Of a stretch of 64,000 bases of DNA, positions 10,394 to 61,616 are shown piece after piece. Location: the NCBI GenBank assembly GCA_964658305.1, contig OZ210885.1, positions 14,012,001 through 14,076,000 of the forward strand, in the 5' to 3' direction. The notes under the pieces were generated by a model. That model saw nothing but the letters and a program-made list of their open reading frames with translations. It was not told the origin of the DNA and did no database searches. The DNA is from Leptogorgia sarmentosa (Eukaryota). The position numbers and the translations under genes were made by a program. How positions within the stretch are numbered: the first letter of the stretch is position 1; the number at the start of each line of letters is the position of its first letter.

Positions 10394-10400
10394 TTTTTCA

Positions 10401-13400: not shown

Positions 13401-13934
13401 CTCCAAATCTGGAGATTTATCAGACCAGTGCGCGACACGGCATGGTTAGCGACGCATGGCATCTTGCCAACAGCAGACCGCTTGACTCGGTTTGGCATGT
13501 CGGTGGATCCTCTGTGCCATTGCGGACAAGTCGAAACATTGATTCACCTCTTTGTGGATTGTCCGGTGGCAAAACACATGCTGAGATGGTATGTCTCCCT
13601 GACACAAAGATCGGTACCTTGGGTTGGTATGCCTACACCATCACAGGTGTTGGTAGGTTACAAACAAGTGGTCAAGATTCCACCAGTTTTTCCGTGCCTT
13701 CTCGGGATAATCAGGCACCGCATATGGGTAGCCAGGAATGGTTGGAGATTCGACCAGGTCCCCGTAAGATACGAGAGAGTTCTGTCAGCCATAAAATCTA
13801 CGCTGCGCTTTACGTTGCGCATGCAGAGGCGACACTGTCCAGTGGATAGGTTCTCGGAATTGTGGTTAGCTGGTGGGCTGTTTGGAGTGGTGTCTCGGGA
13901 AGGAGATCAAGTAATATTTCCAGGTGAGATCTGA
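10401..13934 (+). pseudogene. Element A ORF2 (APE endonuclease, RT, C-terminal zinc finger); one in-frame TGA at 13119
   Basis: SLNCQG, LQETH, GDFN, SDH; LDQEKAFDRV, QGCPLSP, YADD; CHCGQVETLIHLFVDC; ORFs 10386-13121 and 13125-13934 share a frame. Confidence 0.95.
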
Positions 13935-21915: not shown

Positions 21916-22685
21916 CAGGGTGTATCAAAAAAAAGTTTACTCGCGAAAAATGTCTTTTAGGCCGAAGCGCACGCACCCCATTGCAAACCATTGGTATATC
22001 TAAGTAGTTTGAGCCCTTCGGATACATCCTACACTAAAAGTTTGCAGAAAACGACCATTTTACGACTACGAAAAGTGTTATAAAAAGCCGTAGTAAAAAT
22101 GGCTTGCGCGAAAAAATGTGAGGCGGAAAATGCAATTTGATTTGACAGCCTAAATCTATCGAACAAGTTTCATAAGTTATTCAAGTTTTGAGAAATTTGG
22201 TGCACGCTGAGACGAACGTGCGATGTCCAAAAACTGGATTTTGCGTTTTTTCCTGCGTGATTACCGATTAATTTATCCATAATTGGATATTTGCATTAAT
22301 TACCAATGCAAATTGCAAGCTAATTCCCAAGGTACGTAATTACGCGAAGAAATTGCGGAAAATCCAGTTTTCGGGCATCGCACGTTCGTCTCAGCGTGCA
22401 CCAAATTTCTCAAAACTTGAATAACTTATGAAACTTGTTCGATAGATTTAGGCTGTCAAATCAAATTGCATTTTCCGGCTCACATTTTTTTGCGCAAGCC
22501 ATTTTTACTACGGCTTTTTATAACACTTTTCGTAGTCATAAAATGGTCGTTTTCTGCAAACTTTTAGTGTAGGATGTATCCGAAGGGCTCAAACTACTTA
22601 GATATACCAATGGTTTGCAATGGGGTGCGTGCGCTTCGGCCTAAAAGACATTTTTCGCAAGTAAACTTTTTTTTGATACACCCTG
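21916..22685. mobile_element. Fold-back MITE of Tc1/mariner type with ~330-bp inverted arms
   Basis: TA|CAGGGTGTATCAAAA ... TTTTGATACACCCTG|TA; arms ~21916-22247 and ~22356-22685 are near-perfect reverse complements. Confidence 0.92.
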
Positions 22686-23053
22686 TATACAGGACCATAC
22701 CTTCAAGATCAAGTGAACATTGTGCATTTCTACGACGAAATTCTCGTGATTTGTGAGCCGTGGTAGGAAAATTAGTTAACGGTGTCTTACTTTGCTTTAT
22801 TATCGTGCGTTATTGGGGACTATTATTTTATTTCTTGTTCTTTTCCGTAAAATTATACGACAATTTGCGCTATATTTGGTGGTTAGTCATCATTTGGAAT
22901 CGTGACCACGTGAGTGATGTGAGATAAGGCCTGGAACGAGGCATACCGAGTACGTCATGTAAGAACATCTTTCGAACCTGTGATTCGCAATACATATTCG
23001 AGAGATTTTCGCCAGATCGGCGGACCCTGTTAAGTCATTTATTCACTAGACTA

Positions 23054-29913: not shown

Positions 29914-30043
29914 CTGTCGGGGTATACGAGATTTACCCCTCTCAGCCTGGAGCCAGAATTCGTATCCCCCTCAGCGCTTCGCGCTTCGGGGGATACGAGT
30001 TCTGGCTCCAGGCTTCGAGGGGTAAATCTCGTATACCACTCAG
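29914..30043. repeat. Long palindrome with ~55-bp arms around GCGCTTCGCGC; probable fragment of a non-autonomous fold-back element
   Basis: GGTATACGAGATTTACCCCT..AGCCTGGAGCCAGAA..CGTATCCCCC is mirrored by GGGGGATACG..TTCTGGCTCCAGGCT..AGGGGTAAATCTCGTATACC. Confidence 0.85.
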
Positions 30044-30644
30044 ACCTTCGGAATAAGTGTTAGTAACTCTGCTCGCAAGGTTTACTACTAGCTGCAGTTC
30101 TTTTTTGCAGACACGCCTTCTTCTTTGTTCTGTCTTCCCGCTGTCTGGCCGGCCTACTAGGTGTCAAGGTAGCAGTTTGTCCATTCTTTTTTCTTTTGGA
30201 CTGCTTTTCTTGTTCTTCGGAACTCGATTGGTAGTCTTTCCTGCTGTTTGTTGCGCGGTTAGCACGCGACACAGCATAGGGCCGCCCATTACAGTGTTTT
30301 TTTATTGTTTTTATTAGGTAGTGGGTAATAGCTCTTCTTGTGTGTGACCTGTCGAGGAGTCTGTTTGGGGACTACTCAAAGGTCGGTGGTCTTTTAGGTT
30401 CTTTTTTTTTTGCATTCGGTGTTGCGGATTGAGGTCGGTGGACCAACATATTCGTTCCCTGGCTCTTCTTCTTTAAAAAGGACCTTTCTTTCCACTTAGT
30501 TTTTTGATCCTTAGTGTGTGTGTGGGTCTTAATTTGTAGTACTTTTTAAGGCTCAATTTTCTTTGCCACTCGGGTCTTACCTGTTTTGGCAGTGTTTATT
30601 AGGATCAATTTGGTTTAGTTAAATAATTAATAGTAATTTTTGGT

Positions 30645-32435
30645 ATGTCTGCCCCAGCTGTGTTTAGTCAAGAGGACTTTGCGAAGTGGAACCAGACCAC
30701 GTCTGTGTTTCTCTTGCCAAAGAAACTGGTTGGCAAAACCAAAGTCCCTCAGCTACGGGCAGAATTAGTTAAGGCCATTGGGGAGAAGAGTGTGTCTTGT
30801 GTTCAGGCCTTGCCTGGCATGAAATTTCGTGTGTGTTTTTCTTCTCCCTCCGTTCGAAGTCAGTTTGACATCAACGGTCTTAACTTTCGGGGCCTTACCA
30901 TCACGCCCTTCCCGGCCTACGAGGAGGTCAAATCCGTTTTTGTGGATCGTGCACCTCCCCAGATGCCGGATCAATACATCTACGACGCCCTGGCACCATA
31001 CGGTCGTGTGATCGCGGTGAAGCACTTAACTATTAAGGGCTTCCCGTCTGTTAAATCTGGCACACGTATGGTGCAAATCGTCATATCGAAGGCCATCCCA
31101 GCTGAAATTCGCGTGGTTGGATTTCAGCTGTCGTTCCGTGACCGCGGGCAGCCTCCAACTTGCTTTGCGTGCCAAGAGGTGGGGCACACTGCAAAGGACT
31201 GCCCAAAGTCATCAAAACGCCATGGCCGTAATCAACATCGAAATAGTGCTGGTAAACCACAGCCTACAGAGGCGGAGGACCGTAACAACCTGCCGGCTAC
31301 GTCCGGCCTTTCTAAATCGTCCTCTGGCTCTCGCACTGGAGACCTTCGCGAGAAATTAACTCCGAAGGCCACCAACTCGGCAGTGCCCAAGGCTACCAGC
31401 AAGTCTAAGCCTACAGAGGGTTCGGCCAAAGACAAAAACAAACCCTCCTCTTCTTCTTCTTCTCGCAAGGGTGACCTGCGTGAGAGGTTAACGAAGAAGA
31501 CTAGCAAGCCGGAACTGCCATTTGTTCCGGCTGTAGCGGCTAAGGCCAAGGCTCCTCAGGCTAAGGGGGTTAATCCCCTATTAGTTTCGGCTAAGGAGAG
31601 CACCTTCTTGCCGGCCTCGTCCGGCCCTTCTAAATCGACCTCTTCTTCTCGCCCTAGAGGCCTTCGGGAGAAGCTGAGGAAGAAGGTTCCCAAGGCCACC
31701 GAGCCGTCGGATGACACCACAGTGACGCCTCCGACAGCGGAGCATTTGAAGCGCAAATCCTTTGATTTTGCGCTTCCAATACCCTATGCAAGCCCACGTC
31801 CCCTTGGCAAGTCATCATCCAAGGCACCTAAGGGTGTTAGGGCCAACTCCACCAGGGATGCTCCTTTTTCCTCTTCCTCCTCGAGTAGTGAGGATGAAGA
31901 GGGTATAGTGTCCAAGAGGGTATGCCAGTCCGCTCCTGCTCCTTTGACTCCGACCAATGTTAGCGTGTGGCCAGGGTTCACGAGCCCTTCTAGTCCAACT
32001 GCCACTCCAGAGGCCATGGAGGCAGAGGCTGACGTGGACAAATGTTTGAGTGGTGATACGGTCGTTGATCCGATCATCGCTCAAGAATCTGCGCCTGCTC
32101 TTGACTCTACTGAGCCAGTCGGATCCCCGGAGCATATGGATGATGCTCCCGTGCCTCTTCAGGCTGATGTGGAAGATGACGCTAATGCTGCTTCGCAGGA
32201 TCCTCCTGCAGTGGATATCTTGTCTCAGCAGTCTGAGTCATCCCTCGATCTCTTCGAGGCACTGGCAGCCATCCATGAAGACTCGCTGTCTCGTCTTCGC
32301 GATGATGTCAGTGAGGTTGGTGCATCTTCGACATGCACGTCGTTTAGTGATCAGCTTCGTGCTGATCAACTCGAGGAGCTGCCCACATCTGGGACATCAG
32401 ATTCTGATGGCGAGTCTGTTGTCCATCAATATTAA
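30645..32435 (+). CDS. Element D ORF1, open, 596 aa
   Basis: ALAPYGRV, SGTRMV, GQPPTCFACQEVGHTAKDCP; repeated S-rich/GDLRE(K/R)L motif; overlaps ORF2 ATG at 32407. Confidence 0.88.
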   Translation: MSAPAVFSQEDFAKWNQTTSVFLLPKKLVGKTKVPQLRAELVKAIGEKSVSCVQALPGMKFRVCFSSPSVRSQFDINGLNFRGLTITPFPAYEEVKSVFVDRAPPQMPDQYIYDALAPYGRVIAVKHLTIKGFPSVKSGTRMVQIVISKAIPAEIRVVGFQLSFRDRGQPPTCFACQEVGHTAKDCPKSSKRHGRNQHRNSAGKPQPTEAEDRNNLPATSGLSKSSSGSRTGDLREKLTPKATNSAVPKATSKSKPTEGSAKDKNKPSSSSSSRKGDLRERLTKKTSKPELPFVPAVAAKAKAPQAKGVNPLLVSAKESTFLPASSGPSKSTSSSRPRGLREKLRKKVPKATEPSDDTTVTPPTAEHLKRKSFDFALPIPYASPRPLGKSSSKAPKGVRANSTRDAPFSSSSSSSEDEEGIVSKRVCQSAPAPLTPTNVSVWPGFTSPSSPTATPEAMEAEADVDKCLSGDTVVDPIIAQESAPALDSTEPVGSPEHMDDAPVPLQADVEDDANAASQDPPAVDILSQQSESSLDLFEALAAIHEDSLSRLRDDVSEVGASSTCTSFSDQLRADQLEELPTSGTSDSDGESVVHQY

Positions 32436-33201
32436 TGGTCTCAATGACTGTATTAAACGAACCGCCCTGGTGGATTGGTTGAAATGTATGAAGGTGGATG
32501 TTGCATGTTTGCAAGAAATATGTTTGGTGGAAAACATATCTAGTAGAAACGTGTACCACATTAGTCAAAATAATTTAAACAGCCAGCCACATTGTATTGC
32601 CAAATTTACGCCGCAGTATGGACCTCTACACTGGCCCCAAACTTGGAGTCAGCTCCATCTATGTCCATTTGACCGGCTCGTGATCGACCTGAATTGGCAA
32701 ATAGCGCATGGCATTCTATACACGGGCTCTCGCTAGGGAACCCGCTTTAACATGCCCAACATCGATACGCGCTGTTTCTGTCGAGCAGATGAAGAAACGT
32801 TAGAGCATCTGTTCTTCGAATGTGAGCTGGCCCGCCTTTTGGTGGCATGGGTACACTACAATTTATGGCAGATATGTCCTAATGCCGCACCTTTTACCGT
32901 CACGGAACTCTTGTTCGGCTTCTCGTCCGAACGACGGCGCATCGTGCCCTCAATCATCGTGTGGATGCTCCACGTGATGAAACACACCATCTGGGTGGCT
33001 CGTTGCGATTTCCGTTTCCGTGGTAAGCGACCAATCGCCTCGGATTGCCAGGCGAAAGCCATCGCCAAAATAAAGTTTGTCCTTCGTCTCTTTGGTCGTA
33101 GGTGCAAACTCCCTGCTCAAGTGCGATCCTTTGAGTGGGATTGGCTCGCTCGTGGTATTTTAGGACATTTCGAGGGGGAGGAGCTGGTCTTCTCCTTTTA
33201 G
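32407..33201 (+). pseudogene. Element D ORF2 remnant: EN start fused to the C-terminal zinc-finger region
   Basis: MASLLSININGLND..ACLQE jumps near 32518 to ..WQIAHGILYTG..CFCRADEETLEHLFFEC. Confidence 0.85.
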
Positions 33202-33547
33202 TCTTTTTAATCTTTCTTTCTTCCTCTGCCGTTCCGTGAAGGGGGGTCGCCTTCGTTGGTTGTACTGCCCCGATCGGTTCGGTAGGGTCGTTTTCTCTTT
33301 TTAAATGCCCGTTGCTGCCTGTATCAGGTGAGCATCGGTCCATGTACCGTCCTAGTATGTGTTGTTTTTTATATAGAGTTAAATGCACTAATCGAGGCGT
33401 CAGAAAAATAAATATTCTCGGGGTGCATTTAATGAGGAGGTAGGGATCGTCCCCCTAGTCGTTTGCGTGCCGGTAGCACCCTCCTCGATTTAGGGAAATC
33501 CATTGCACGCCCCCCAGTGGGGGTGGATTTGCCTATATCCAACATAA

Positions 33548-33709
33548 ACTTACCTGACGCGAGAGGCACCTTGATCAACTAGGAGGTCCTCTCAGGATGA
33601 GGCCCTTTCATTGCACTTCGACTGGGTTGACTCCTGCGATTACCCCTAATGTGGGTAACTCGAGCGTATAATTTCTGGTAGTGGGGACCTGCGTTCGCGC
33701 TCGTCCCCT
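33548..33709 (+). ncRNA. U1: U1 snRNA nt 3-164, promoterless, 3' flank of element D
   Basis: Matches 7253-7414. Confidence 0.95.
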
Positions 33710-34391: not shown

Positions 34392-34415
34392 ATCGCTTCT
34401 CGGCCTTTTGGCTAA
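34392..34415 (+). ncRNA. U2: U2 snRNA 5' part (nt 1-24), interrupted by element C
   Basis: ATCGCTTCTCGGCCTTTTGGCTAA after the same spacer as 7415-8113. Confidence 0.93.
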
Positions 34416-37400
34416 ACGTTCTGGGTATTACCCGTGTTCAGTTAGTTTTTGCTGAGAAATCATTTTTTATGAAAGATTTTTTCATACTTTTTTTCAATTT
34501 TTCGTGATTTTCATTTTGGGAATCAAGATATCTTCATTATCAAGTTTCATCGTGTGCTTTTTTCTATCAAACCGTGTGTGTTCCTGATTGCTGGAGTGTA
34601 CCACCAATTATCTTTTTGGACTACAGGGATCAGGTGCAATAACTTTCTGGTGAACTATACACTCTGTAAACAAATTGTTGCAGAGTAAGGTATTTTTGCA
34701 TATATATTCTTCGTGTGAACTTTTCGTGGGAACATTAATTATGCCTATATACCAACCTAACCGTGCCATCATTGGTACTATACCTGACGGGGCCATGCAG
34801 CCTCCACCAACTTTAAGTGTCTCATTGATGAATTTGAGCCTCAATTGAAGGACATTATGAAACATTCTTTCAAGAATATCATGCAATTAGGGGCTCGTTC
34901 TTTTGTTATTCACGTGGCTAAAGATTCCGATGTCCCATTATATATTAAACGGGGCCTAAGTTATCACGGACATAAAATTCACTTAAAAGAAGCCAAGAAT
35001 ACAACCACCGTCACTTTACAGCGTGTCCCTTTCGGATTATCCATCTAATCTATCGTTGATACTCTCCGGGTGTATGGCCATGTTAGTGAATGCCTGCATT
35101 AATTATATCGAGGATATGGTGTTTCGAAAGTGGTAGCTGAGATGGATCTCAAATCGGATATCCCATCCCGTATACGTATCAAAGGCAACCCCATTAACAT
35201 CTTTTATCGGGGTCAACCTCGATCATGCTTTGCCTGTGGAGAAGGTGGGCATGTGTCTAAAGATTGTCCGCGTAATCGGAATCGAAATATACACCCCAAA
35301 CCCCAGGTGACTCCGCCTAGTGAAAACCAGAACGTTCAGAAGTCACGCCCTGCAGAGACAACGTCACAACTGCCAACGTCATCACCACCTTCCAGTCCCT
35401 CTGAGTCTACCAAGGTACCGGCGACACCCACTTACGCAGACGCTGTTTCAGGTGCATCATCATCCTTATTGACTGTGGTTCCGTCCAAACCGGTGGAGAC
35501 ATCTCCTTCTGCAAAGATTGCGGTCGCGGTGCTGCCTCGTGAAACGGGTTCGAATTCCGAACACCCGCCATCTGCATCCCAATCTGACTCAACATTGTTG
35601 CCTCCCGAACATCAAGCAAACGAGGTTAAATCTCTCCCACCAAAAGCTCCAGTTGATCCAGTGATCCCCTCTTCAACTTCCACCAAGAGGGCGCATAAGC
35701 AAGATTCGGATTCAGAGAGCGATATTCCCCCCTCCAAGAGGGTCGTATCTACTTCTGTACCAAGTAACGATAAAAGCGACATGGTCATCGATCCTCCTAG
35801 TGCCGAAGCCGAATCGGATGAAGACCCTTTGAAGGTATATGAAGTCACCTCAGTGGAGCAAGATCCCACGGCAGACAGGGTTCCTCCTCCAGAAGTTGAC
35901 CTCACTGAGGACGACGGATGTCTACCAGTTCCAGGTGCGGCTCTCTCCGATCCACCTTCTGCTGCAAAGGTACCCCCCCAAGCGGCAACCGATAATTTGT
36001 CTGTCAACCTGCCCATCCCAGGCAAAGAAAGTGAGGCGAAGATTTCCCAGGAACCTCTCAAGAAGGCGGTAACACCCCTGAGATTGGATCGCTCAGTCTC
36101 TTCTCCCAACCTGCAATCCCCTCAACTATTCACCCCCACCCCACCCACACCCCGTAGCAAGCCTAGTCCTCAAATTTCGCAATTTTCCCAGTCATCTACG
36201 GGATCTCTGTGGACAGCACGGAGTTCCCTGTCCACAAAAACGAAGGGGAAAATAGTATGCAGCAAGGTCTTACACAAGTCCCACCAGCTCAGTTTGTACG
36301 AAAGAAAACCTAGCCAAGTTTGTTCTCGGGGTCCTCTAAGCCTTGGTAATACGTTCCTCCTGACCATCGCATTATCTGACATTTCACAATTTTTTCGATA
36401 TGGCTAATAAAATCAAAATGATAACTCTCAACTGTCAAGGCCTACGGGCTCGTCCTAGTTTGGAAACACTTTTTTCATGGCTAAACTGTTTTGCGCCTGA
36501 CATTGTTTGCCTACAAGAAACGCATTCTCTCTCGGAAGCTGAATTCTCGAAATGGACAGATGAAATGAATAATACGGTCTTATCCAAAACTTCGTATCAA
36601 GTTGTCTCGTCACCGGGTGCTAGCAGAAGTTGTGGCGTCGCCATTCTTTTTCGGTCCGAATTGAGTTTAGAAGCAACCTTTCGAGATGAGGCTGGTAGAA
36701 CAGTGGCAGCGATCCTTAAACATCAGGACGTTACTTTTCAAGTTGCGAACATTTATGGGCCCAATAATAAAAAGGACGGCATCCCTTTCTTTGAATCGTT
36801 GGTTCCTGCACTACAATCGGACTGTCCCATAATACTGTGTGGCGATTTCAATACCGTGTTGAATCCAGCGGCTGACCGCCAATCATGTAACCTTTCGTCG
36901 CCCTGGGCTTATAATAATCCTCCCTCATTGTGTACTCTTATGGATACTTTTGAGTTAACAGACATTTGGCGGAAACATCATCCAACCGAAAAACAGTATA
37001 CTTGGCACCGTCCCAATGGTAGTCAAGCCTCTCGTTTGGACCTCTTCCTGGTCTCCTCTTCCTTGGTAGATTGCATCTCACACACCGACATCCTCCCCTT
37101 TTTTCGCTCTGATCACTGCTACGTATATATGGAGTTCTCTTTGCCGGATCAGATAGCCCTAGGCTCAAGCTATTGGAAATTCAATACTATGCACCTCACG
37201 AACCCGAATTTTCGCAACATGATAGAAACCTTCTGGAAATCATGGCAAAAACACAAGCATCGCTTTTCCTCATTGACGGCTTGGTGGGATAGCGGAAAAA
37301 TTGAGTTACGCAAGCGAATTAAGACTTTCTCACGTCGCGAAGCATCTCGACGGAAATTGAGGAAAAAATCTCTCGAAGCCACAATTTACCATCTGAATCG

Positions 37401-40276
37401 AAGAATGGAGAAAGGAGAAGATGTCCATGAATACTTAGGTGAAGCAAAAGCTGATTTGGATCTACTCATGCAGGAAGCAGCGAGAGGAGCCTAAGTTCGT
37501 GCACGGGTACAATGGGCAGAAGAAGGGGAACGGTCCACTTCATACTTTTTTCAACTGGAAAAACGTCGAGCGACCAAGTCAGTGATCCGATCCATCTCTA
37601 GGCCGGACAGTTTGTTGGCAATGACATCGCATGGCATACTTGAAGTGTTTCGCGAATTCTACTCTGATTTATTTACCTCACAACCCTTAGCGGAGTACGA
37701 CATTGACTTTTTCATATCCCATATTGAGCACACTTTGTCGTCGCACGACCAGAAACTTTGTGAAGGACATCTAACGGTGGAAGAGTGCTTTGAAGCGGTA
37801 AAGAATATGTCACAGAACAAAACCCCTGGGTTGGATGGCCTTCCAGCTGAGTTCTACATCGTCGGTTGTCTCCCTGTCTCAGACTGCCGGTACACCTGGT
37901 CGATTATCGGATGCAAATATCCGTTTAATTAAAGACATTGTTCAGTATGCGAATGAGAAAGATTTTTCGGCGGCTATTATATCCTTAGACCAAGAAAAAG
38001 CCTTTGACTGAGTGGAATGGCCGTTCATGTCACACGTTTTATCTGCCATGGGGTTTGGTCCATCATTTCAACGGTGGGTGAGCCTCCTCTACACCAATAT
38101 CTCCTCAGCGGTTATTGTCAACGGCTTTATATCCAAACCATTTGCTGTTTCCAGGGGTGTCCGTCAAGGTTGCCCACTTTCCCCGTTACTTTATATCCTA
38201 GTGATCGAGGCTTTGGCTATTACCATCGAGAAGGACACGAGCATTGATGGTTTTACTCTTCCTGATGGCTCTCGACAAAAGTTATGCCAATATGCTGATG
38301 ATACTACGGCGTTGGTCATGTCAGATCAATCTATCCTGCAGCTCTTTGCAACATGTAAGCAGTACGAATCAGCATCGGGAGCCAAGCTCAATCCAAGTAA
38401 ATGTGAGGGCCTTCTGCTTGGTGCCTGGCGTGCTCGGTCAACCTTCCCTGTGGAACTCAATTGGAAAGCAGATTGTATTCGTGTCCTCGGGAGTCGTATC
38501 AGCAATGACGGTTCAGAGGATTGGCAATTCCCCCTCGACAAATACACCAAATTGTTGGAATCCTGGAAGCGTCGTGACCTTTCCTTTCGTGGGTGTACTA
38601 TGGTAACAAAGACTCTTGGGTTGAGTCTTTTCTGGTATCTCGCCACCTTCCAAGAGATACCGTCGAAGATACTGGCAACGATCAACTCGTTGACATTTTC
38701 ATATATTTGGGGCAAGAAACGAGAATGGTTAGCCCGAAATTCGGTGACCCAACCTGTGGGATCTGGTGGTCTTGGTGCTGTTGATGTTGGACGTAAGATA
38801 CAATCTCTACATTGCCTATGGATCAAACGGTACCTACTTGGTCCTTGTCATGGTTTTTTTTAATATTTCGCAATGTGTGCTTTCCCCAACAAAGCATCAA
38901 TGACTGACATCCTATTACACCCACGCCCCGCTACTCGTTCTTTACACGCTCTACCGGCATTCTACAAATCCATCCTCTGTTCCTGGGTAGCACTGAATCC
39001 TAGCCTTTCGGAACAGATCTGGAAAGTACGCGCACCGAAACCACCGGACATAACCATTGACCACCTAAGCGCCAAGCTAGCCTATGATCTTCTTCGAAAG
39101 CCTTTCTCCCATCGCTGCTTCGAACATTCACATACCTTAGGGCCAGCTAAAGAGTGGAAGTGGGTGTGGCATAATTTATCACTGTGGAACTACGTGCGAT
39201 CTGTACAGGACACTGCGTGGCTTTCTGCCCATGGAATTCTTCCTACAGCTGATCGTCTACAGCGATTTGGACAACAAGTGTCGGGGGAGTGTCACTGTGG
39301 CTGCCCAGAGACTCTCGTCCATCTATTTACGGAGTGTCAAGTTGACATCGACGTGCTCCACTGGTTCTTAGCACGTTTCCAACAGTACCTTCCGCACAGC
39401 AAATATCCTACCGACCAAGAACTCCTTTTCGGTTTTCATCCAGCTCGCAAAATTCCTGTCGCATACTCAGCGATGTTAGGTGTTATCCGCCACCATTTAT
39501 GGCTGACCCGGAATGCTTCCCGTTTCGACTCCACCAAACCGGATGTGGACTTTATCCTATCCCGTGTCAAGTCAACTTTCCGATTCCTACTACGTGTCCA
39601 ACATCGTAATTGTAAACCAGAGCTGTTTGATCGTGAATGGCTGGCAAAGGGGGCCATCGGGGTCTTAACTCCCGACAACGTTCTCATTCTGCGACAGGAC
39701 TTTCGCACTTGACCATATTGTGTGTTGTATTTTGTGTTACTGTCACCATACGGGGGTCGCCTTGATTGGTTGTACTGCTGTCCTTGGGGCAGTCTAACTT
39801 GTGTGTACACTGTTTCCTTACTGTCGAGGCAATGTTTGTATAACTCGTGAAATAGTAATATCGTATGTCCTGTAATATGTTTAATTGTCTTGCCGAGATA
39901 TGCGGCGTGTATAGTGGTCTCGTAATGTTTCGCAATTTTGGCCCGTGGTTCTTTCAAGTCTAACTCCCAAGGATTGCACAGGTATCTGGTGGACTCAGGG
40001 GTGCTCATGTCATCATCGACTTCAGTTTCAGATCATCTACTTCATTCAATCACCATCATAGAGTTAGGGAACCCCAGGCGTGACAGCGCTTAGCACTTGA
40101 TCGTCTGGACCACTCACGAGTCGTTTCATGGCACGGGGGAGAGGGTCGTACTCTCTGTTGATCTGCTTGCTGTGTAGCAACCCCCTGGGTGCGGCGTTCG
40201 CACAAAAGTTCAGGTTGCATTGCACCGACGGAACCGGATCAGAAACGATGCAAACTTTACGTCGTTCAATTCAAAA
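34416..40276 (+). mobile_element. Tx1-clade element C (third family) inserted in U2; ORF1 ~34741-36380 and ORF2 36400-39712 both disrupted
   Basis: Flanked by U2 nt 1-24 and U2 nt 22 onward; YRGQPRSCFACGEGGHVSKDCP; LQETH, GDFN, SDH, QGCPLSP, YADD; ends CAATTCAAAA. Confidence 0.93.
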
Positions 40277-40605
40277 TAAGATCAAGTGTAGTATCTGTTC
40301 TTATCAGCTTAATATCTGACATCTACTTCATTCAATCACCATCATAGAGTTAGGGAACCCCAGGCGTGACAGCGCTTAGCACTTGATCGTCAGGGCCACT
40401 CACGAGTCGTTCCATGGCACGGGGGAGAGGGTCGTACTCTCTGTTGATCTGCTTGCTGTGTAGCAACCCCCTGGGTGCGGCGTTCACACAAAAGTTCAGG
40501 TTCCATTGCACCGACGGAACCGGATCAGAAACGATCCAAACTTTACGTCGTTCAATTCAAAATAAGATCAAGTGTAGTATCTGTTCTTATCAGCTTAATA
40601 TCTGA
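40034..40605 (+). repeat. Two imperfect 286-bp direct repeats (element C 3' end plus U2 nt 22-64)
   Basis: 40034-40319 and 40320-40605, differing at about 6-7 positions in the element part. Confidence 0.92.
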
Positions 40606-40729
40606 TATGTTAGGCAATGTCCTAACTCATATATTAAACTGATTTTTGGACCTCGGCCATGGGATTGAAGCTTGCTTCGCCCTGGCCACGGGTTGTCTCG
40701 GTATTGCACTACCTCCGAGTACGGCCCAC
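40563..40729 (+). ncRNA. U2: U2 snRNA 3' part (nt 22 to ~188)
   Basis: TAAGATCAAGTGTAGTATCTGTTCTTATCAG, Sm site GATTTTTGG, SLIV CTCGG-TATTGCACTACCT-CCGAG. Confidence 0.96.
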
Positions 40730-41183
40730 TTCCCCCAATTTCATTATTGGGGGAAGATTTCTCACTCACTATCAGTTCAAAATCAGTCTAACAAATTATT
40801 CTTGACTTTACAGATAGATCCTTGCCGCGAACCGGCATTTGGCAAGAGATACGTATACAATGACATATTCAGTGCGGATGACCGACGACGAAGGAATTAT
40901 GGTAAGCAGCCTAACACATTCATGTTATAATAGTCTTGGGTAGCTGCTCGTTGGCCAACAAAGCTTAAGCAGCATCGCTGTTCATGAGATTTACATTCTT
41001 TGGTTTTTTTGTAAACTCGTATTGAATATGCGGGTCGAGAATTGTCGGAACGTGCAAACATGGTGCAGTCCGAGAGATCGATCGATCCATCTATCGACAG
41101 ACAAACTCATCCCCATGCATTCGTTCCACAAGCATTCCTCGAGGTTGAAGCGTATAAAAGGTAATCGTATGCGCCATGAAGTC
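40730..41183 (+). promoter_or_regulatory. U2-U1 intergenic spacer including the U1 promoter
   Basis: Distal part matches 7050-7250 and ~53336-53609. Confidence 0.75.
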
Positions 41184-41200
41184 ATACTTACCTGACGCGA
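41184..41200 (+). ncRNA. U1: U1 snRNA nt 1-17, interrupted by element E
   Basis: ATACTTACCTGACGCGA directly after the U1 promoter. Confidence 0.92.
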
Positions 41201-44200
41201 CCGTCTTTGTCGTGTCAGGTTCTTCATACTTGCAGTAGAGGATCTATGCTCAGGAACACGGACCCGTAACTCTGCTCGCAAGGTTTACAACTAGCTGCAG
41301 TTCTTTTTGCAGACATGCCTTCTTCTTTGTTCTGTCTTCCCGCTGTCTGGCCGGCCTACTAGGTGTCAAGGTAGCAGTTAGTCCATTCTTTTTTCTTTTG
41401 GACAGCTTTTCTTGTTCTTCGGAACTCGATTGGTAGTCTTTCCTGCTGTTTGTTGCGCGGTTAGTACGCGACACAGCATAGGGCCGCCCATTAGTGTTTT
41501 TTATTGTTTTTATTAGGTAGTGGGTAATAGCTCTTGTGTGTGACCTGTCGAGCAGTCTGTTTGGGGACAACTCAAAGGTCGGTGGTCTTTTTAGGTTCTT
41601 TTTTGCATTCGGTGTTGCGGATTGAGGTCGGTGGACCAACATATCCGTTCCCCGGCTCTTTTTCTTTTTGAAGGACCTTTCCACTTAGTTTTTTTTGGTG
41701 GATTGTGCGCCTCCCCAGATGCCGGATCAATACCTCTACGACGCCTTGGCACCATACGGCCGTGTTATTTCGGTGAAGCATTTAACCATCAAGGGCTTCC
41801 CGACCGTTAAATCTGGCACACGTATGGTGCAAATAGTCATTTCAAAGGCTATTCCAGCTGAAATTTGCATAGTTGTTACCGCGGGCAGCCTCCTAATTGC
41901 TTTGCGTGCCAAGAGGTGGGGCACACTGTAAAGGAGTGCCCAAAGTCATCGAAACAGAGGAATCAGGGCCGTCAAACTAGAAATAAAAATAGTATTGGTA
42001 AATCTACGCCTACAGAGGCTGAGGATAGTAATAACTCGCCGGGTTTGTCCGGCCTTTCTAAATCGTCCTCTGCCTCTCGCACTGGAGACCTTCGCGAGAA
42101 GATAACGCCAAAGGCTAGTAAGTCGGCAGTGCCCCAACCTACCAGTACAACTAAGCCGGCAAAAGGTTCGCTCAAGGACAAGTCATCCTCTTCTTCTTCT
42201 TCTTCTTGCACGGGTGACCTTCGGGAGAAGTTAACGAAGAAGAAGACTAGCGAGCCAGCACTGCCATATGTTCCGGCTGTAGCGGCTAAGGAGAATGCTC
42301 CTCAGGCTAAGGGGGTTAATCCCCTATTAGTTTCGGCTAAGGAGAGCACCTTCCTGCCGGCTTCGTCTGGCCCTGCTACATCGAGCTCTTCTTCTCGCCC
42401 TAGAGACCTTAGGGAGAAGCTGAGGAAGAAGGCTCCTAAGCCCACAGGTCACTCTGAGCAGACTACTTTGACGCCTCCGACAGCTGAACATCTGAAGAGC
42501 AAATCCTTTGATTTTGCGCTGTTGCTTTCTCAGTGTCGCCTTGGCAAGTCACCCAGGCATGATCCTTTTTCTTCTTCCTCCTCCAGAAGTGAGGATGAAG
42601 CTGGTAAAGTTGGCAAGAGAGTATGCACGTCTGCTCCTGCGCCTCCGAGTCCATCCAACGTTAGCGTGTGGCCAGGGTTCCCGAGCCCTCCGACTAAAAC
42701 TGCCACTCCTGAGGCCATGGAGGCGGAGGCTGACGTGGACAAGTGCTTGAGTGGTGATACGGTAGTGGACCCTATCGTCGCTCACGAATCTGCACCTGCT
42801 CTTGCCTCTACTTAGCCAGCCGGATCCCCGGAGCGTATGGATGATGCTCCTGTGCCTCCTCAGGCGGATGTGGACGATGATCATGCTGCTTCGCAGGATC
42901 CTCCTGCAGTGGATGTCTCGCCCCAACAGTCTGAGTCATCCCTCGATCTTTTCCAGGCACTGGCAGCCATCCATGAAGACTCACTGACTCGTCTTCGTGA
43001 CGATGTCAGTGAGGTTGGTGCATCTTCAACATGCACGACTTTTAGTGATCAGCTTCATGCTGATCAACTCGAGGAGGTCCTTCTTGGTGAGCCGCCCACT
43101 TCTGGGACATCAGATTCCGATGGCGAGTCTGATGTCCATTAACATCAACGGTCTTAACGACTGTGTTAAACGAACCGCCCTGGTGGATTGTTTAAAGTGT
43201 ATGAAGGTGGATGTAGCATGTTTGCAAGAAACGCATGCTCCTTCGCACGAATCCATTAGGAAGTGGTTCGCTAACTCTGGCTTTCGAGTTGTCTCGTCGT
43301 CAGTGTCAAATAAGCGTTGTGGGACGGCTATTCCTATTAAAGATTGCCACAAGGTCAAACAGGTGATCCGAGACGATGATGGACGGTTTGTCCAAGTCTT
43401 GGTTGATTTTGGGGAAGATCAGCTAAGTTTCGTCTCATTATATGCCCCAAATAAGAATCCGGCTTGTAACGCTTTTTTCGCTTCAATTCCTGGTTTAATT
43501 GATCTTACCAGGCCCACATTTGTTTGTGGTGATTTTAATTCTGTTCTAGATGATGATCGGCATAGGCTTCGGCGTGCTTCTTACACTGGTGCTGCCTCTT
43601 CGCGCGCCCAGGAAAGTGGCCCGGCTTTGCAGGCCCTACTATCTCATACCCAGACATATCCGGTGTGGCGTACATTACATCACACGCAGACAGCTTATTC
43701 CTGGACCCATGGGTCCGGAACCTTTGGCTCGCGCATCGATATGGTCTGGGCCCCGACTTGTCTGGAACAGTCTATTAGGGAATGTGAATATCATCCCTCC
43801 TTTTTATCCGATCATCAGTACTTGCTGGTCAAGTTCGATTTTGGTGATCGCATCGTTAGTGGTCCTGGAGTGTGGAAGTTTAATACTTCCCTCCTGGACG
43901 ACGAAACCTATTGCTCGCTTGTCACTTCTTTTTGGTCCTTCTGGCAGGTCCATTATACACCTGAGGCCTTTCCCTCCATTTTGGATTGGTGGGACCAAGG
44001 GAAGTTCTACCTTAGAGAAGTGACATGCACTTTTAGTCGGTCAAAGGAGCTGGACCGGCGTGAACATAAATCGTTCCTGACCAAGCAAATGCACAGATTG
44101 CAACGTCTTTTTGAAGCAGGGGATACCTCTGCATTCGCTAAGCTTTGCGAGGTACAGGAAGAGCTCCGAGGCATTGCTTTGCATAAAGCTAGAGGGGCAC

Positions 44201-44560
44201 AAGTTCGTGCTCGTTGTCAGTGGGCTGAGGAGGGGAAAACTTCCTCCTCCTTTTTTCTCAATTTAGCCACTAAGCGACATGCAAAGCAGGAGATGCACTC
44301 CATTCGAGACCCCGACACCGGTTCCGTGCGCCGCGACCCTTTTGAGATCTTGGACGTCTAGCAGCGGTATTACACCAGACTCTTTACTGCGGCACGCTGC
44401 GATACATCTGCTCAGGATGAGATGCTGTCAAAGCTGTCTCGCCGCCTTAGTAAGGAGGAACGTGCGTGTTGTGAGGGTCTTCTGTCTTTAGAGGAGTGTT
44501 TTACTGCCCTATCGGTTATGGCTAGGGGAAAGACTCCGGGTTTCGATGGCTTTCCCGGAT
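41201..44560 (+). mobile_element. U1-targeting Tx1 element E: 5' end intact, ORF1 partly deleted, EN and start of RT present
   Basis: 5' UTR and ORF1 homologous to D and G; ORF2 from 43120 with LQETH, GDFN, SDH, GPGVWKFN. Confidence 0.88.
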
Positions 44561-47036
44561 CAGAAAGAGGTTCTCCCAGATAGTCTTTTTTATCTTCAGC
44601 TTTTCTCTGCATCCCTTTTATCTCCCTTGGATGAGTCCTTTTTTATAAACAGTTTAGATAAATCTCTCTCTTCTGAAGAAGCCCAGCTTTGTGAAGGAGA
44701 AGTCACATTACCTGAATGTCAGCGAGCTCTGAACTTGTTTAAACATAACAAATCTCCGGGTCTTGATGGCTTGCCATACGAATTTTACCAGTCCTTTTGG
44801 GACATACTAGGACCTGATTTAGTTTCTGTTTATAATGATTGCTTGGCACGAGGTGCTCTTTCTTTTTCCCAGAGAACTGGACTAATCTCGCTTCTCTTTA
44901 AGAAAAACGATCGTTTAGACGTCAAGAATTGGCGGCCCATTTCCCTTTTGTGCACCGATTATAAAATTTTATCTAAGGTGCTAACCAACCGCCTTAAAGT
45001 TGTACTATCTTCGGTAATTTCCGAATCCCAAGCTTGTGGTGTTCCTGGCCGGTTTTCCGGGCTGAATGTACGGACATTACAAGATGTAGTAAATTTTTGT
45101 AATCGTACTAATACCGGAGGGGCTATTATCTCCTTAGATCAAGAGAAGGCTTTTGATCGGGTCGACTGGGGGTTCATGCTTCGCACCTTAGAAAAGATGC
45201 ATTTTGGTCCATCCTTTTGTGCATGGGTCAAACTCCTGCACACCAGCATTTTTTCCCGCATTTTGGTAAATGGTTTTGTGAGCGATGCTTTTGTTATTAC
45301 TTGTGGCATACGTCAAGGGTGTCCTCTTTCTCCCTTACTCTATATCATTGTGGCAGAGACCATCTCCAGTGCCATAAAAAAGGACCTTAACATTGACGGT
45401 TTCGAAATGTTCAACGGTGAGACTATAAAAATTTTCCAATACGCCGACGATACATCCGTTATCGTTCACTCCGAGCAGGCCCTGCAGTCGCTTTTTTCTC
45501 TCTTCGAGAGATACGAAAGGGCGTCTGGCGCAAAACTAAACATAGCTAAAAGTCACGGTCTTCTTTTCGGCTCCTGGAAGAACCGAGTTGACCTACCTGT
45601 TCAACTCAACTGGTCTAGTGACGCCATAACGGTGCTGGGGTGTCGGGTTGCAAACATAGAATCTGCTGACTGGGACTCCTTGGTTGCAAAGTTAGAGCAA
45701 CAACTCTCTCTTTGGAAGCAGCGTCAGCTGTCCTTTAGGGGCAGAGCGCTCATTGTCAATACCTAGGGGCTGTCGCTCTTTTGGTATCAAGCGACAATTT
45801 TTGATCTTCCCAAAATGACGATTGCCAAAATCAACAAAATCATTTTCACTTTTGTTTGGGGCAAAAAGCGAGAATGGATGGCACGCACATCCGTAGTCCA
45901 GCCCATCGGAGATGGTGGTTTAAATATTGTGGATGTCCCAAACAAGATTTTGTCCATTCGTGCAGTTTGGCTCCGCCGTTTTTTTACCAATCAGACACAC
46001 CCATGGTCCTGTTTTTTCCCCACCATATTGAGGTGGTTTTTGGTCAGCCGGTTGCTGATGTTCTGGCTCGGGATCCCATCCCAGCCTACTTAATAAAAAA
46101 ACTACCTCACTGTTATAGGGGTGTACTGTCCGCATGGGTATCGTTACACGGCCGAAACGATCAGGGCGCTTGGGTTCTCCCTCGCACTTCAGGTCAATTG
46201 CTTCCTCTTGAAGAGCTGACTGCCAGTACGGCATATTCTCTTCTTCGCCGCTCTTCCACCGTTGAACACCGCTCAGTTGCTAAATTTAGAGACTGGGGCA
46301 TAACTGTACAGTGGCAAGCTGTGTGGGCGAGCCTATATCTTTGGCGGTTTGTCCGGTCGGTCCAGGATACGGCCTGGCTCACCTTCCATGGCATCCTTCC
46401 CACGGCAGATCGTCTAGTCCGTTTTGGGATGAGAGTTCATCCCTTGTGTTTTTGTGGTGCGCAAGAGAATTTGCTTCACCTTTTTACCTCTTGCCCCTTT
46501 TCCCTCTCCATTCTTGACTGGTTTCAGTCAATTCTCAGGAAACATCAGCCGAATGCACCTCCAATACCAGCAGACAACGTTTTATTTGGATTTGTGTCCA
46601 ATAATAGTATGCCTACCGCCTTTTCTGCCCTACTGGGCGTGCTCCGCCACACCATTTGGTTAAGCCGTAATGCACAACGTTTCGACCATAAAGCCCCAGA
46701 CGTCACCTTCTCGCTGAAGAAGGCAAAAACCACCTTCCGCTTTCTGGTGCGAATGCAAAAACGGCATTGCCCTCGGGATAGGTTCGTCCACGAGTGGCTA
46801 GCAGATGGTGTAATCGGCTCGTTAACAGAGCAAGAGTGGATCCGCTTCACACGTGACTTCATCACTTAATCCCTTATCTCGTCTTTCCTTCCTTCTCTCT
46901 TTCTCCTCTCTTGAATAGTGTGGTCTAGGGGCACGATGGTCGCCTTCACTGGTTGTACTGTCGTCGCCTTCTGGACTCGTTTGTCCTTTTGTTTCGTTGT
47001 CTTGGACTGGACAGCACAATTGTTTTATGTTAAATG
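44561..47036 (+). mobile_element. Tx1 fragment F (B-like family): RT, C-terminus and start of 3' UTR
   Basis: ORFs 44546-45766 and 45856-46869 resemble element B ORF2 and end WIRFTRDFIT; 3' UTR motif at 46938. Confidence 0.85.
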
Positions 47037-50000: not shown

Positions 50001-51905
50001 TTAAGATCCGAACAATTTTTTACTTTTAAATACTTTTGAATATTCTTAAATATCCCTAATTATACTTAGTTTTATAATTTTATCTACTATGTAAATATAA
50101 CTCTAGTAATACTCTGAGCCTATAAATATTGTGATTATGTAAATACATATAGCCATAAATATAGTCAATGTTGTAAATATAGTAATTTAACATAGCCTTA
50201 GTAATACCATGCATGGACTCGTTAATTCAGTGTAATTACTGCAAGAGAGTTCCAATAAACATCAAATCAAATCAAATCAAATCAGAATCCGGCTCGCAAC
50301 ACTTTTTTCTCTTCAATTCCTGGACTCATAGCTCTTACCAGGCCCACATTTGTTTGTGGTGATTTTAATTCTGTGCTGGACGATGATCGGGATAGGCTTC
50401 GGCGTGCTTGTTACACTGGTGCTGCCTCTTCGCGCGCCCAGGAAAGTGGCCCGGCTTTGCAGGCCCTACTATCTCATACACAGACATATCCGGTGTGGCG
50501 TACATTACATCCCACGCAGAAGGCTTATTCCTGGACCCATGGGTCCGGAACCTTTGCATCGCGCATCGATATTGTCTGGGCCCCGACTTGTCTGGAACAG
50601 TCTATTAGGGAATGTGAATATCATCCCTCCTTTTTATCCGATCATCAGTACTTGCTGGTCAAGTTCGAATTTGGTGATCGCATTGTTAGTGGTCCTGGAG
50701 TGTGGAAGTTCAATACTTCCCTCCTGGACGACGAAACCTATTGCTCCCTTGTCACTTCATTTTGGTCCTTCTGGCAGGCCCATTATACACCTGAGGCCTG
50801 TCCCTCCATTTTGGATTGGTGGGACCAAGGGAAATTCTACCTTCATGAAGTGACACGCACTTTTAGTCGGTCAAAGGAGCTGGACCGGCGCGAACATAAA
50901 TCCTTCCTGACCAAGCAAATGCACAGACTGCAACGCCTTTTTGAAGCAGGGAATACCTCTGCATTCGCTAAGCTTTGCGAGGTACAGGAAGAGCTCCGAG
51001 GCATTGCTTTGCATGAAGCAAGAGGGGCACAAGTTCGTGCTCGCTGTCAGTGGGCTGAGGAGGGGGAAACTTCCTCCTCCTTCTTTCTCAATTTAGCCAC
51101 TAAGCATCATGCAAAGCAGGAGATGCACTCCATTCGAGACCCCAACACCGGTTCCGTGCGCCACGACCCTTTTGAGATATTGGACGCCTGGCGACGGTAT
51201 TACACCGGACTCTTTACTGTGGCACCCTGCGATACATCTGCTCAGGATGAGATGCTGTCAAAGCTGTCTCGCCGTCTTAGTAAGGAGGAACGTGCATGTT
51301 GTGAGGGTCTTCTCTCTTTAGAGGAGTGCTTTACTGCCCTGTCGGGTATGGCCAGGGGAAAGACTCTGGGTTCCGATGGCTTTACCATGGAGTTTTTCCT
51401 CAAGTTTTGGTCATGCCTTGGCGCTGATCTGGTTCGTGTCCTCAATGTTGCTTACGTGGCCAGCCAGCTTTCCACCTCTCAGCGTCGAGGTTTGATCATT
51501 GTATTATACAAAAAGAATGACCGCTTGGAGACAAAGAACTGGCGGCCGATTAGTCTGCTTAATGCAGACTATAAAATAGCTACTCACGCTATTTCGGGTC
51601 GTCTTCTAGCCGTCATCGGGTCTGTTGTAGGGCCAGATCAGATATGCAGTGTTCCAGGGCGTACTATCTCAGAGAACCTCTTTCTGATCCGTGATCTATT
51701 TGAGTATGCGGAGCATGAGGACATTCCCCTCGCTCTGCTCTCTATGGATCAAGAAAAAGCATTTGATCGGGTCGATTGGGGTTTTCTTTTACGGACTCTG
51801 GACACCATGAATTTTGGTTCGGATTTCTGCTGATGGGTAAAATTGTTTTACTCCGACATAGAATTGGTTGTTGTCATCAATGGCTGGACCTCCTCCTTTT
51901 TCCAG
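47037..51905 (+). mobile_element. Second U1-family fragment (ORF1 tail ~47037-47670; ORF2 ~50284-51905) split by a LINE
   Basis: Close matches to ~31617-32290 and ~43454-44550; extends into RT (NWRPISLL, DQEKAFDRV). Confidence 0.8.
47671..50283 (+). mobile_element. CR1/L2-group LINE (APE plus RT, internal deletion near 48915) with (ATCAA)n tail
   Basis: ANVRG, ITETWL, GDFN, SDH; DFSKGFD, GIPQGTKLG, FVDD; AATAAAC followed by ATCAAATCAAATCAAATCAAATCA. Confidence 0.88.
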
Positions 51906-53335: not shown

Positions 53336-53609
53336 CGAATTATACTTGCATGGTAAGAAGCAGCCTGACACATTCATGTTATAATAGTCTTGGGTAGCTC
53401 GCTGGCCAACAAAGCAGCATCACTGTTCATGAGATTTACATTCCTGGATTTTTTTCTAAACTTGTATTGAATATGGTCGAGAATTGTTGGAACATGCAAA
53501 CATGGTGCAGTCCGAGAGATTGACAGACAAACTCATCCCCATGTATTCGTTTCACAAGAATTCCTCGCGGTTGCAGCGTATAAAAGGTAATCATATGTGC
53601 CATGAAGTC

Positions 53610-53691
53610 ATACTTAAGGTACCACCCCTAAGGTGGGTAACTCGAGCATATAATTTCTGGTAGTGGGGACCTGTGTTCGCGCTCGTCCCCT
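53610..53691 (+). pseudogene. U1: Internally deleted U1 pseudogene with diverged flanks
   Basis: ATACTTA followed by a jump to SL3, Sm site and SL4; upstream and downstream spacer sequence present. Confidence 0.88.
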
Positions 53692-53771
53692 TAATCCTTA
53701 TCCTCATCTTATTATTCCCATTTAAATACTCAAAACTGACTCAACATCCTAGTATGTTGAAGGGACAACAA

Positions 53772-56559: not shown

Positions 56560-56868
56560 GAGATGCTAATCGATCTGTCTGAGTTTTGGTATGAGTAAGC
56601 TTGACTGGACCAGCATAGGTTAAAATTGGGAGTATCATCATGGTGTAGATCTTTGTTGCTGCATGACTATTCAGATAGTTTCTAACATTCTGTAGTAGTC
56701 TCATACGACTGCTTGCTCGTTTATAGGCTCGTTCAAAATTACTGTTCAGAGTGAGTGTACTCTCCAGGACATTTCCAAGGTACACATATTCTTTAACAAA
56801 AGAAATAAGTGTGCCGTTGTAATAGATTTTAAGTTCTCTTCCATTTTGACTCAATCTCAAAAAACAAT
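56560..56868 (-). pseudogene. CR1/L2-group RT C-terminal fragment
   Basis: EYVYLGNVL..KRASSRMRLL..IYTMMILPILTY. Confidence 0.7.
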
Positions 56869-58245
56869 TGCTTGAATCGTACCACCGTGCCCTCGTCCAA
56901 ACCCTCCGTAACATCTGTGACATACCCAAACGATCGACACAGGCCTATTTCTTTGCCTCGAAGTGCTCCAGTGGCCTTGCACTGCAAGATCCAATGTCCG
57001 AGATTGACGCCCAATGCATCGTCCAAGCTGTTCGAATCCTGTCCTCGTCTGACCCCACTACCGCCTCCATCGCTCGGGCTGACCTCCATGCCGTCGTCCG
57101 ACGCACCACAAGCTCCAACCCCTCACCAAACCTCATATCGAAACGCCTTATTTGCAGCACCGAAAACCCACTCGGCAACCTCAATTACACAAACTCGTCC
57201 TTGTGGTCCAGATGTCGCAAAGCCTGTCGACGCCTCAACATCCGTTTCGTGTTCTCGGATACCGAAGAACCCGCAATCTCCACCACAGATTCTGATCGCA
57301 TCAAATCCAAGAATGTAACCAGCTTCCTCCACCGCTACATCCAACAAAAACATTCCCAAAAACTCCTCGACCTACCTGACCAAGGCAAAGTAGCTCAATG
57401 TCTCTCCAACGACCGTTATGCCAATGGCTCCACCTGGCACAGTACTGGATCGAACCTCCGATTCAAAGACTGGTGCTTCATTCATAAAGCCTGCCTGAAT
57501 TGTCTGCCAACCAATTCTGTGAAAGCTCGATGGTCCAACACCTCCCCCACCTGTCGCCACTCTACCGACGCTGAGACTCTACGGCACATCATCAACCACT
57601 GCCGTCCAGATCTCGTGCACATACGTACCCGACACAACAAATTAGTCACCCGCATCACAGATGCCATCCGCTTTGGCACCATTACCTCAGACCGCACCAA
57701 TGCCTCATCTGATCTCCTCCTATGCCCAGACATCATCTTAGAAGAAGACGATCACACCTTAATTATTGACGTTACATGTCCCTTCGACAATGGTCCCGAT
57801 GCCCTTGAGGAAGCTGCACAGGCAAAGATCACCAAATACCTCCCGCTCAAAGAACATTGTCAGTCCAATGGAAAACCCTGTGAAATTCTCCCTTCTGTTG
57901 TTGGTTCCCTTGGATCCTGGCACCCTTCTAACAAACTCCTCCTGTCCAAACTCGGAATGACCCAACGCTGCCGAACGCTATTTTGCAAACTATGTTGTAC
58001 GGATGCTATCCAAGGCTCGTGTGATGTCTATCGACTCCATATGGGATAGGATCACACAGCTGGGCTCTTAGGTCTTTTACACAGTGCACGTGACACGCAT
58101 GCCTTTTATTTTTTCCATTTAGACTCCACCTTTTATGTTTTCATTCCCCCTTATATACCTGCACACACGTAAGCCACTCGGGCACATGAACACTAGATAC
58201 TCAGACTTGAGTCTAATAAAAGGTAATCGTATGCGCCATGAAGTC

Positions 58246-58262
58246 ATACTTACCTGACGCGA
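58246..58262 (+). ncRNA. U1: U1 snRNA nt 1-17, interrupted by element G
   Basis: ATACTTACCTGACGCGA; same junction as 41184-41200. Confidence 0.92.
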
Positions 58263-61200: not shown

Positions 61201-61616
61201 TGTGATTTCTGTTTCCGTGGTAAGCTGCCAGTCACCTCCAATTACCAGGCGAAAGCCATCGTGAAAATCAAGTTTGTCCTTCGCCTCTTTCGTCGTCGGT
61301 GCAAGTCTCCTGCTCAAGTGCGATCTTATGAGAGGGATTGGCTCGGTGGAGCGTGTCTTCTCCTTTTAGGTTTTTTAATCCTTTTTTCTTCCTCTGCCGT
61401 TCCGTGAAGGGGGGTCGCCTTCGTTGGTTGTACTGCCCGGATCGGTTCGGTGAGGTTGTTCTCTTTTTAAATCCCTGTTGCTGCCTGTATCAGGTGAGCA
61501 TCGGTGCATGTACCATCCTAGTATGTGTTGTTTTTTATATAGAATTAAATGCACTAATCGAGGCATCGGAATAATAAATACTCTCAGGGTGCATTTAATG
61601 AGGAGGTAGGGATCGT
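58263..61616 (+). mobile_element. U1-targeting Tx1 element G: ORF1 degenerate, ORF2 internally deleted, last ~100 nt missing
   Basis: Collinear with D and E; EN breaks near 60778 and resumes in the C-terminal region; 3' UTR matches 33202-33450. Confidence 0.88.

Follow-up and report, generated by a model that had tools for sequence, protein, structure and literature searches.

Complementarity between U1 and the 5′ end of an apparently Tx1-like LINE inserted in U1 genes of Leptogorgia sarmentosa

U1 and U2 genes and the elements inserted in them

The analyzed stretch, hereafter the window, comprises 64,000 nucleotides of Leptogorgia sarmentosa contig OZ210885.1 (assembly GCA_964658305.1, positions 14,012,001 to 14,076,000 of the forward strand) and is an array of U1 and U2 genes dense in LINEs; its positions 1–282 are identical to 63719–64000, as in a circularised contig or an assembly overlap. 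Rfam places intact U1 genes at 7251 and 33546 and pieces of U2 at 40265 and 40551, and we use the uninserted U1 gene at 7251–7414 (RF00003, 152.9 bits) as the reference; this gene and all features of the U1-inserted family described below lie on the forward strand. At two further loci U1 begins (+1 at 41184 and 58246) and gives way to non-U1 sequence after nt 17. The first is preceded by a putative promoter region (40904–41183) that is 92% identical to the upstream region of the reference gene, with 57 of the 60 bases adjoining +1 identical to those of intact U1, and its U1 nt 1–17 (41184–41200) are identical to the reference start. The second 5′ junction (58216–58262) retains just 30 bases of U1 upstream sequence ahead of U1 nt 1–17. 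At the one 3′ junction (33548–33709), U1 restarts at nt 3 (or 4) and lacks nothing from that point on. Both element 5′ ends and the single 3′ end are thus located at the U1 site, and no copy keeps both ends; the 5′ border falls at U1 nt 17 in both full-length 5′ junctions, and the two copies differ by one base right there. Because the 5′ ends follow nt 17 and the 3′ end rejoins U1 at nt 3, a target-site duplication of ≈15 bp (U1 nt 3–17), pooled from the junctions of different copies, is implied.

Self-alignment of the window reveals three decayed copies of this element (30063–33547, 41201–44556, and 58263–61616) and fragments at 47041 and 50278. The copy at the first 5′ junction, annotated from self-alignment, translations, and the Pfam model Exo_endo_phos, starts with a loop and an arm (41201–41220) and continues (41221–44556) with a U-rich 5′ UTR, an ORF1 with deletions, and the endonuclease region of ORF2, breaking off near 44556. 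The second copy (58263–61616) carries the same arm at 58270–58281, has an internal deletion, and has lost its 3′ end. The third (30063–33547) is missing the 5′ end, including the hairpin region, and retains a nearly whole ORF1 with a zinc knuckle, a mostly deleted ORF2, and an intact 3′ end. An ORF2 fragment at 50278–51833 (endonuclease end and RT start; Pfam RVT_1 and Exo_endo_phos) is 94% identical to 43448–44556. The two copies with 5′ ends differ by 25 substitutions in 465 aligned downstream bases, which places them in one family. Inverted repeats of 57 bases (29921–30037, directly before the 5′-truncated copy at 30063) and 342 bases (21911–22690) are also found in the window.

Across its fragments, the family carries an AP-type endonuclease (PF03372) and an RT (PF00078) in ORF2, and ORF1 has a CCHC zinc knuckle (PF00098, residues 172–188). 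Protein homologues are numerous, with 154 matches to ORF1 and 511 to ORF2, and ORF1 relatives in other anthozoans show 60–85% identity; a whole homologue, 83% identical, has LINE-1 ORF2p as its best PDB match, the named ORF1 homologue is from Paramuricea clavata (68%), and a Stylophora pistillata protein annotated as Transposon TX1 149 kDa protein is 42% identical to the element. These named homologues, the S. pistillata protein included, suggest that the element is Tx1-like, and on domain content and junctions we classify it as an APE-RT LINE inserted in U1 genes.

Two other Tx1-like families (8114–14480 and 34392–40279) occupy U2 genes, cut after nt 27 at 8114 and after nt 24 at 34392, and U2 resumes near nt 22–23 (40278 and 40564). 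A further family starting near 14481 stands in tandem behind the element at 8114–14480, and 40034–40608 is a 286-base tandem duplication that repeats an element 3′ end with a piece of U2. An ORF fragment at 56850–58215 ends exactly at a TATA-like box 30 bases before U1 +1; it has no Pfam match, bears a motif that we take to be of the restriction-like-endonuclease LINE type, and is possibly a second element aimed at the U1 promoter. The regions upstream of U1 and U2 (7180–7250 and 8050–8113) have in common a GCATT..TCTCGC-like block and a TAAAAG box, presumably a plant- or insect-like two-part snRNA promoter. Finally, a short 3′ UTR motif, GTCGCC and then, by eye, GGTTGTACTG, recurs directly after ORF2 in several Tx1-like families whose targets differ (13965–14110, 20060–20090, 33240–33270, 39750–39780, 46935–46965, and 61410–61440), and is a candidate RNA recognition element.

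The hairpin at the 5′ junction

At the first junction, U1 nt 7–17 (41190–41200) are followed by a 9-nt spacer and then by an antisense arm (41210–41220); in the second copy (58252–58281), the spacer is 8 nt. The initial annotation described 11 bp between U1 nt 7–17 and the element start at both loci, with one G-U pair, which in the first copy joins U1 nt 14 to 41213. This pairing is borne out, and the stem is longer than first described, since the first element base (41201) pairs as well and extends the arm to 41209–41220. Folding predicts a 12-bp hairpin with a 7-nt loop at 41190–41220 (−20 kcal/mol, z −6.1) and a 13-bp hairpin with a 4-nt loop at 58252–58281 (−22 kcal/mol, z −7.4), the 13th pair being a second G-U; none of 200 shuffles was as stable. 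Shuffling only the first 30, 50, or 80 bases of the element behind an unchanged U1 leader yields a helix of 11 bp with no more than one G-U in 4–12 of 5000 shuffles, and the energy gained from leader pairing is equalled in 0–9 of 600. Only six of 4266 30-nt blocks on both strands of the window reach 11 bp with the leader, namely the two arms plus four U1 copies read on the minus strand. Energy and unbroken helix length are the only discriminating measures, a count of paired leader bases being uninformative (105–191 of 600 shuffles). Because both copies represent one family, the two hairpins count as one event; nonetheless, the junction is real and unusual for a U1-inserting Tx1-like LINE. A further stem, in the 5′ UTR, does not stand out significantly from shuffled sequence (15 and 30 of 200 shuffles). 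A little further downstream, differences from all other copies at 41227–41228 make 41224–41231 an 8-base direct repeat of U1 −2 to +6, possibly through a templated double change.

The heads of the neighboring elements were compared in the same way. The head at 34392–34465 can pair with U2 nt 6–13 and 19–24 using three G-U pairs (z −3.2), which is borderline once the leader is fixed: 4–8 of 600 shuffles fold better at 50–80 bases and 96 at 40 bases, and the pairing gain is reached by 23–40 of 600 (515 of 600 at 40 bases). Leader pairing of the 8114 element is at chance level (164–346 of 600), and the head hairpin of the 14481 element is not above shuffles (105 of 200). A general rule that snRNA-inserted elements start antisense to their leader is unsupported, with the 8114 element at chance and the 34392 element borderline (longest helix, 82–4980 of 5000 shuffles).

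Three sequencing runs of one sample (X1, X2, and X3) contain the stretch, with X2 lacking cover at 41205–41209. Contigs of depth 2524 (X1) and 1616 (X3), which include 30 letters left of the junction, one fewer than the criterion for bridging demands, and whose depth is not to be read as copy number, span 41171 through the hairpin and show no difference inside it. A low-depth contig (61–112) present in all three runs matches from 41213 onward; over 282 bases it differs by 27 substitutions and 9 gap letters, to be compared with ≈5 changes in the 36 bases of its junction. Its 30-letter loose end (X1 and X3) consists of U1 nt 3–17 with two changes, the loop, and the arm, and the two letters before U1 nt 3 fit the element 3′ end, so this diverged copy may be a tandem insertion. 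Since it carries the hairpin, the hairpin is, on these contigs, older than ≈10% divergence. Read by eye, the diverged copy replaces the C-G pair at U1 nt 15 by U-A, breaks the pair at nt 16, and adds one arm base; on either side of the compensated pair the change is of CpG type. As a check for compensatory change, this one diverged junction, with one compensated and one broken pair, decides nothing. Extra conservation of the arm is likewise not detectable, either here or between the two window copies (no change in 12 bases, probability 0.52), a comparison with little power to see selection.

The single G-U pair bears on this point. A perfect inverted copy of the target predicts C at 41213, followed by G, and the T observed is a CpG-to-TpG change. 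Such changes distinguish copies at 5 of the 20 UTR and 9 of the 35 ORF1 CpG sites, when 5% and 8% of all sites differ, so that CpG sites differ three to five times more often than sites overall. It had been argued that the G-U favors selection at the RNA level over a DNA snap-back; that argument fails, the pair amounting to one CpG-to-TpG transition in a hypermutable class of site. Because CpG decay on one strand gives a G-U pair and on the other a mismatch, this evidence is worth a factor of two at most.

Homologous junctions were sought in other sequence collections. An ORF1 alignment of 20 sequences, run against metagenome contigs, returned one locus among 307 candidates, which starts inside ORF1 and so has no junction; none of 32 candidates in viral contigs and none of 18 in prokaryote contigs proved to be a homologous junction. 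Pattern scans gave 3, 63, and 67 loci, and we regard all 133 as chance because none matches the U1 promoter, the U1 body, or the element UTR.

Origin and possible roles of the antisense arm

The explanation that we favor, and to which we give an even chance of being right, derives the arm from the element's own U1 target: an inverted copy, likely born once by snap-back at an ancestral 5′ junction and likely inherited since through an RNA start at U1 +1. The bottom strand would be nicked at U1 nt 2/3 and the top strand after nt 17, leaving nt 3–17 as a 3′ overhang that could have been extended and copied back on itself. A transcript from the U1 promoter, here in the place of rDNA read-through, would carry nt 1–17; since these bases would let the new cDNA anneal to the target, every descendant would repeat the junction together with its scar. 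Transcription of the element from the U1 promoter is plausible given the uniform 5′ border at U1 nt 17. The single G-U pair would be later CpG decay, and hairpin formation in the RNA, along with concealment of U1 nt 7–11, would be a real side effect that is tolerated by selection and not necessarily an adaptation.

Several observations are consistent with copying at the DNA level. The arm ends flush at the proposed top-strand nick (U1 nt 17), and inverted pieces of the target region occur three times within the first 26 bases of the element: U1 nt 11–14 (41202–41205), nt 7–17, and 5–6 promoter bases at about −9 to −4. Inverted 5-mer matches of this promoter type occur at 2.5% of window positions; this piece cannot stem from pairing within a U1 transcript because it lies outside any such transcript. 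A U1 pseudogene with promoter (53358–53738) consists of nt 1–7, a short insert, and U1 from about nt 97, and the insert at its break (53605) includes five bases inverted from nt 6–10, a match of a kind that occurs at 1.25% of positions and present with the same letters in run X2. These short inverted matches, found post hoc, point weakly to DNA-level copying at the U1 site. In insertions by R2 protein, snap-backs form a defined class of junction, built from reverse-complemented cDNA or, more rarely, from nearby target DNA, according to the available text of PMC11371274 and PMC11331408. In the portion of PMC3774820 at hand (Eickbush et al. 2013), R2 elements with upstream target sequence in their RNA have uniform junctions, aberrant junctions are proposed to propagate, and earwig R2 has a fixed 22-bp target duplication with three substitutions. 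Against an inherited scar stand the diverged copy with its one compensated pair; the above-chance pairing of one of the two U2-inserted families with its leader, which is not copy-like; the one-base difference between the window junctions, which end-joining at an internal start would also produce; the mere 30 promoter bases retained by the copy at 58246; and the rarity of snap-backs on target DNA among those in the R2 data, as far as the accessible part of PMC11371274 reports them.

A second possibility, which we hold only tentatively, is that selection on the chimeric RNA has kept the hairpin, whatever its origin, because it closes an unstructured U1 leader, shields the 5′ end, hides nt 7–11, and stops at CAG/GU so as to avoid a real donor. 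The U1 leader alone is unstructured, when the U2 leaders of the neighboring elements have a stem-loop of their own, and folding predicts that the chimeric RNA, if made, has nt 8–17 fully paired and binds a perfect splice donor at −4.0 instead of −15.1 kcal/mol. The proposal that the hairpin masks part of the splice-site-binding arm of U1 therefore holds as a folding prediction. A longer inverted copy running past CAG/GU would create a perfect splice donor, so the end of the arm may have been set by purifying selection. The one imperfect pair is a G-U in RNA and an A-C in cDNA (−11.5 versus −9.7 kcal/mol as DNA), the arm is unchanged in both window copies and in the high-depth X1 and X3 contigs, the diverged copy has exchanged C-G for U-A at U1 nt 15, and the fold of the U2 element at 34392 with its leader outdoes nearly all shuffles at 50–80 bases. 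However, the compensated pair is two CpG-type changes and is followed by a broken pair in the same copy, the pairing gain at 34392 is marginal, the 8114 element shows nothing of the kind, and nt 1–6 stay open in the predicted fold. To our knowledge, a leader devoid of an Sm site and stem-loops cannot form an snRNP, so there is perhaps little to mask. We consider an inherited snap-back scar more likely than a selected RNA structure; the two are compatible, as a scar can be retained for the effect that it has.

More doubtful is the idea that the arm is a selected guide to the element's own target, in which the sequence antisense to U1 nt 7–17 either closes the leader in cis or pairs with the target top strand to set the second nick. 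The form of pairing with target DNA in which the RNA starts at the first base of the element, and the free arm pairs with U1 nt 7–17 of the top strand to assist in melting the duplicated segment, in positioning the second nick, or in retaining the upstream end, appears improbable. In its favor, the would-be overhang is the very strand and segment to which the arm is complementary, the arm ends at the proposed nick, and the 5′ border is uniform; however, snap-back equally predicts the flush end, a transcript from U1 +1 would lock the arm in the hairpin, the U2 family at 8114 is site-specific with no such arm, and target choice is ascribed mainly to the endonuclease in the available text of PMC4494074.

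That the complementarity is mere chance seems very improbable: we are dealing with one family and one event, seen post hoc among four 5′ junctions of three families, but the helix recurs in only 4–12 of the 5000 shuffles, and no other block of the window matches bar the minus strands of four U1 copies. Least probable of all is docking of the arm on intact U1 snRNP in trans, as suggested in the initial annotation; one conceivable benefit would be to shield a long transcript from early polyadenylation. CAG/GU is present in the arm, and a net −10.1 kcal/mol is predicted for its binding by naked U1 RNA. However, U1 nt 12–17 account for six of the 11 pairs, and these bases are internally paired in helix H (part of the four-way junction in the U1 particle, by the consulted part of PMC2712673) and stem I; donor positions +3 to +6 have no pairing bases in the arm, and the hairpin in cis is twice as stable.

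Relation to known elements and significance

The closest relatives by description are the Tx1 elements of snRNA genes, compared here with the accessible text of the papers cited. Keno, a U2-specific APE-type member of the Tx1 clade (PMC4640811, PMC4494074), is alike in its ORF2 with APE and RT, its zinc-knuckle ORF1, its insertion in an snRNA gene, and its occurrence in cnidarians. The U1 element is not assignable to Keno, as its target is U1 and not U2: it uses U1 nt 3–17, whereas Keno and Utopia resume U2 at nt 39, and it has an inverted target copy, which those parts of the Keno descriptions do not mention. The U2-inserted families of the window, too, resume U2 near nt 22–23 and not at the nt 39 of Keno and Utopia. 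The available part of Kojima and Jurka 2015 (PMC4640811) lists Keno and Utopia (U2), Dada-U1, and Dada-U6 as the only snRNA-targeting elements, and a figure legend in PMC4494074 includes U5 among Tx1 targets. From what is accessible of PMC8869645 and PMC4494074, Dada-U1 shares the U1 gene target but is a DNA transposon, and SINEU elements have U1-derived 5′ heads, but as sense copies in nonautonomous elements.

Among R2 elements, those with upstream 28S sequence in their RNA (PMC3774820, available text) resemble the U1 element in that the target-derived 5′ end of the RNA pairs with element sequence, 5′ junctions are uniform, and aberrant junctions have become fixed. The R2 pairing, however, constitutes P1 of an HDV-like ribozyme, whose two strands are at least 23 nt apart, whereas the pairing here is a plain hairpin with a spacer of 8–9 nt and the transcript start would be the snRNA's own +1. 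The U1 element does not fit the HDV-like 5′ ribozyme of the R2/L1Tc type, a double pseudoknot whose P1 strands enclose P2, P3, and L3: its strands are only 8–9 nt apart, Rfam yields no ribozyme at E up to 10, and a custom descriptor, run with no positive control, matches none of five element heads. The 5′ junctions formed by R2-protein snap-back, as the available text of PMC11371274 and PMC11331408 describes them, likewise fuse reverse-complemented target or cDNA to the element, but they are one-off events of an RLE-type protein in cultured cells, whereas the inverted piece here is common to a natural APE-type family. Our search of openly accessible articles turned up neither a LINE specific for U1 nor an inverted target copy that is inherited; subscription journals, Repbase, and supplements may list U1-specific Tx1 families.

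The formation of the 5′ junction and of the second strand is a poorly understood part of LINE insertion, and a fixed inverted copy of the target at the head of an element is a natural record of that step; it is also indirect evidence of transcription from an snRNA promoter. If the arm is the inherited snap-back scar that we favor, it would represent R2-like inheritance of a junction at U1, a target that we did not find in print for LINEs. If the arm is selected, it would point to a way to neutralise a borrowed U1 5′ end or to guide the second nick, with a bearing on RNA-templated gene insertion. Were it truly a guide, an APE-type LINE would use pairing between the 5′ end of its RNA and the target, and arms of this kind would arise repeatedly among the Tx1 families that target snRNA genes, a pattern at which the U2 element at 34392 may hint.
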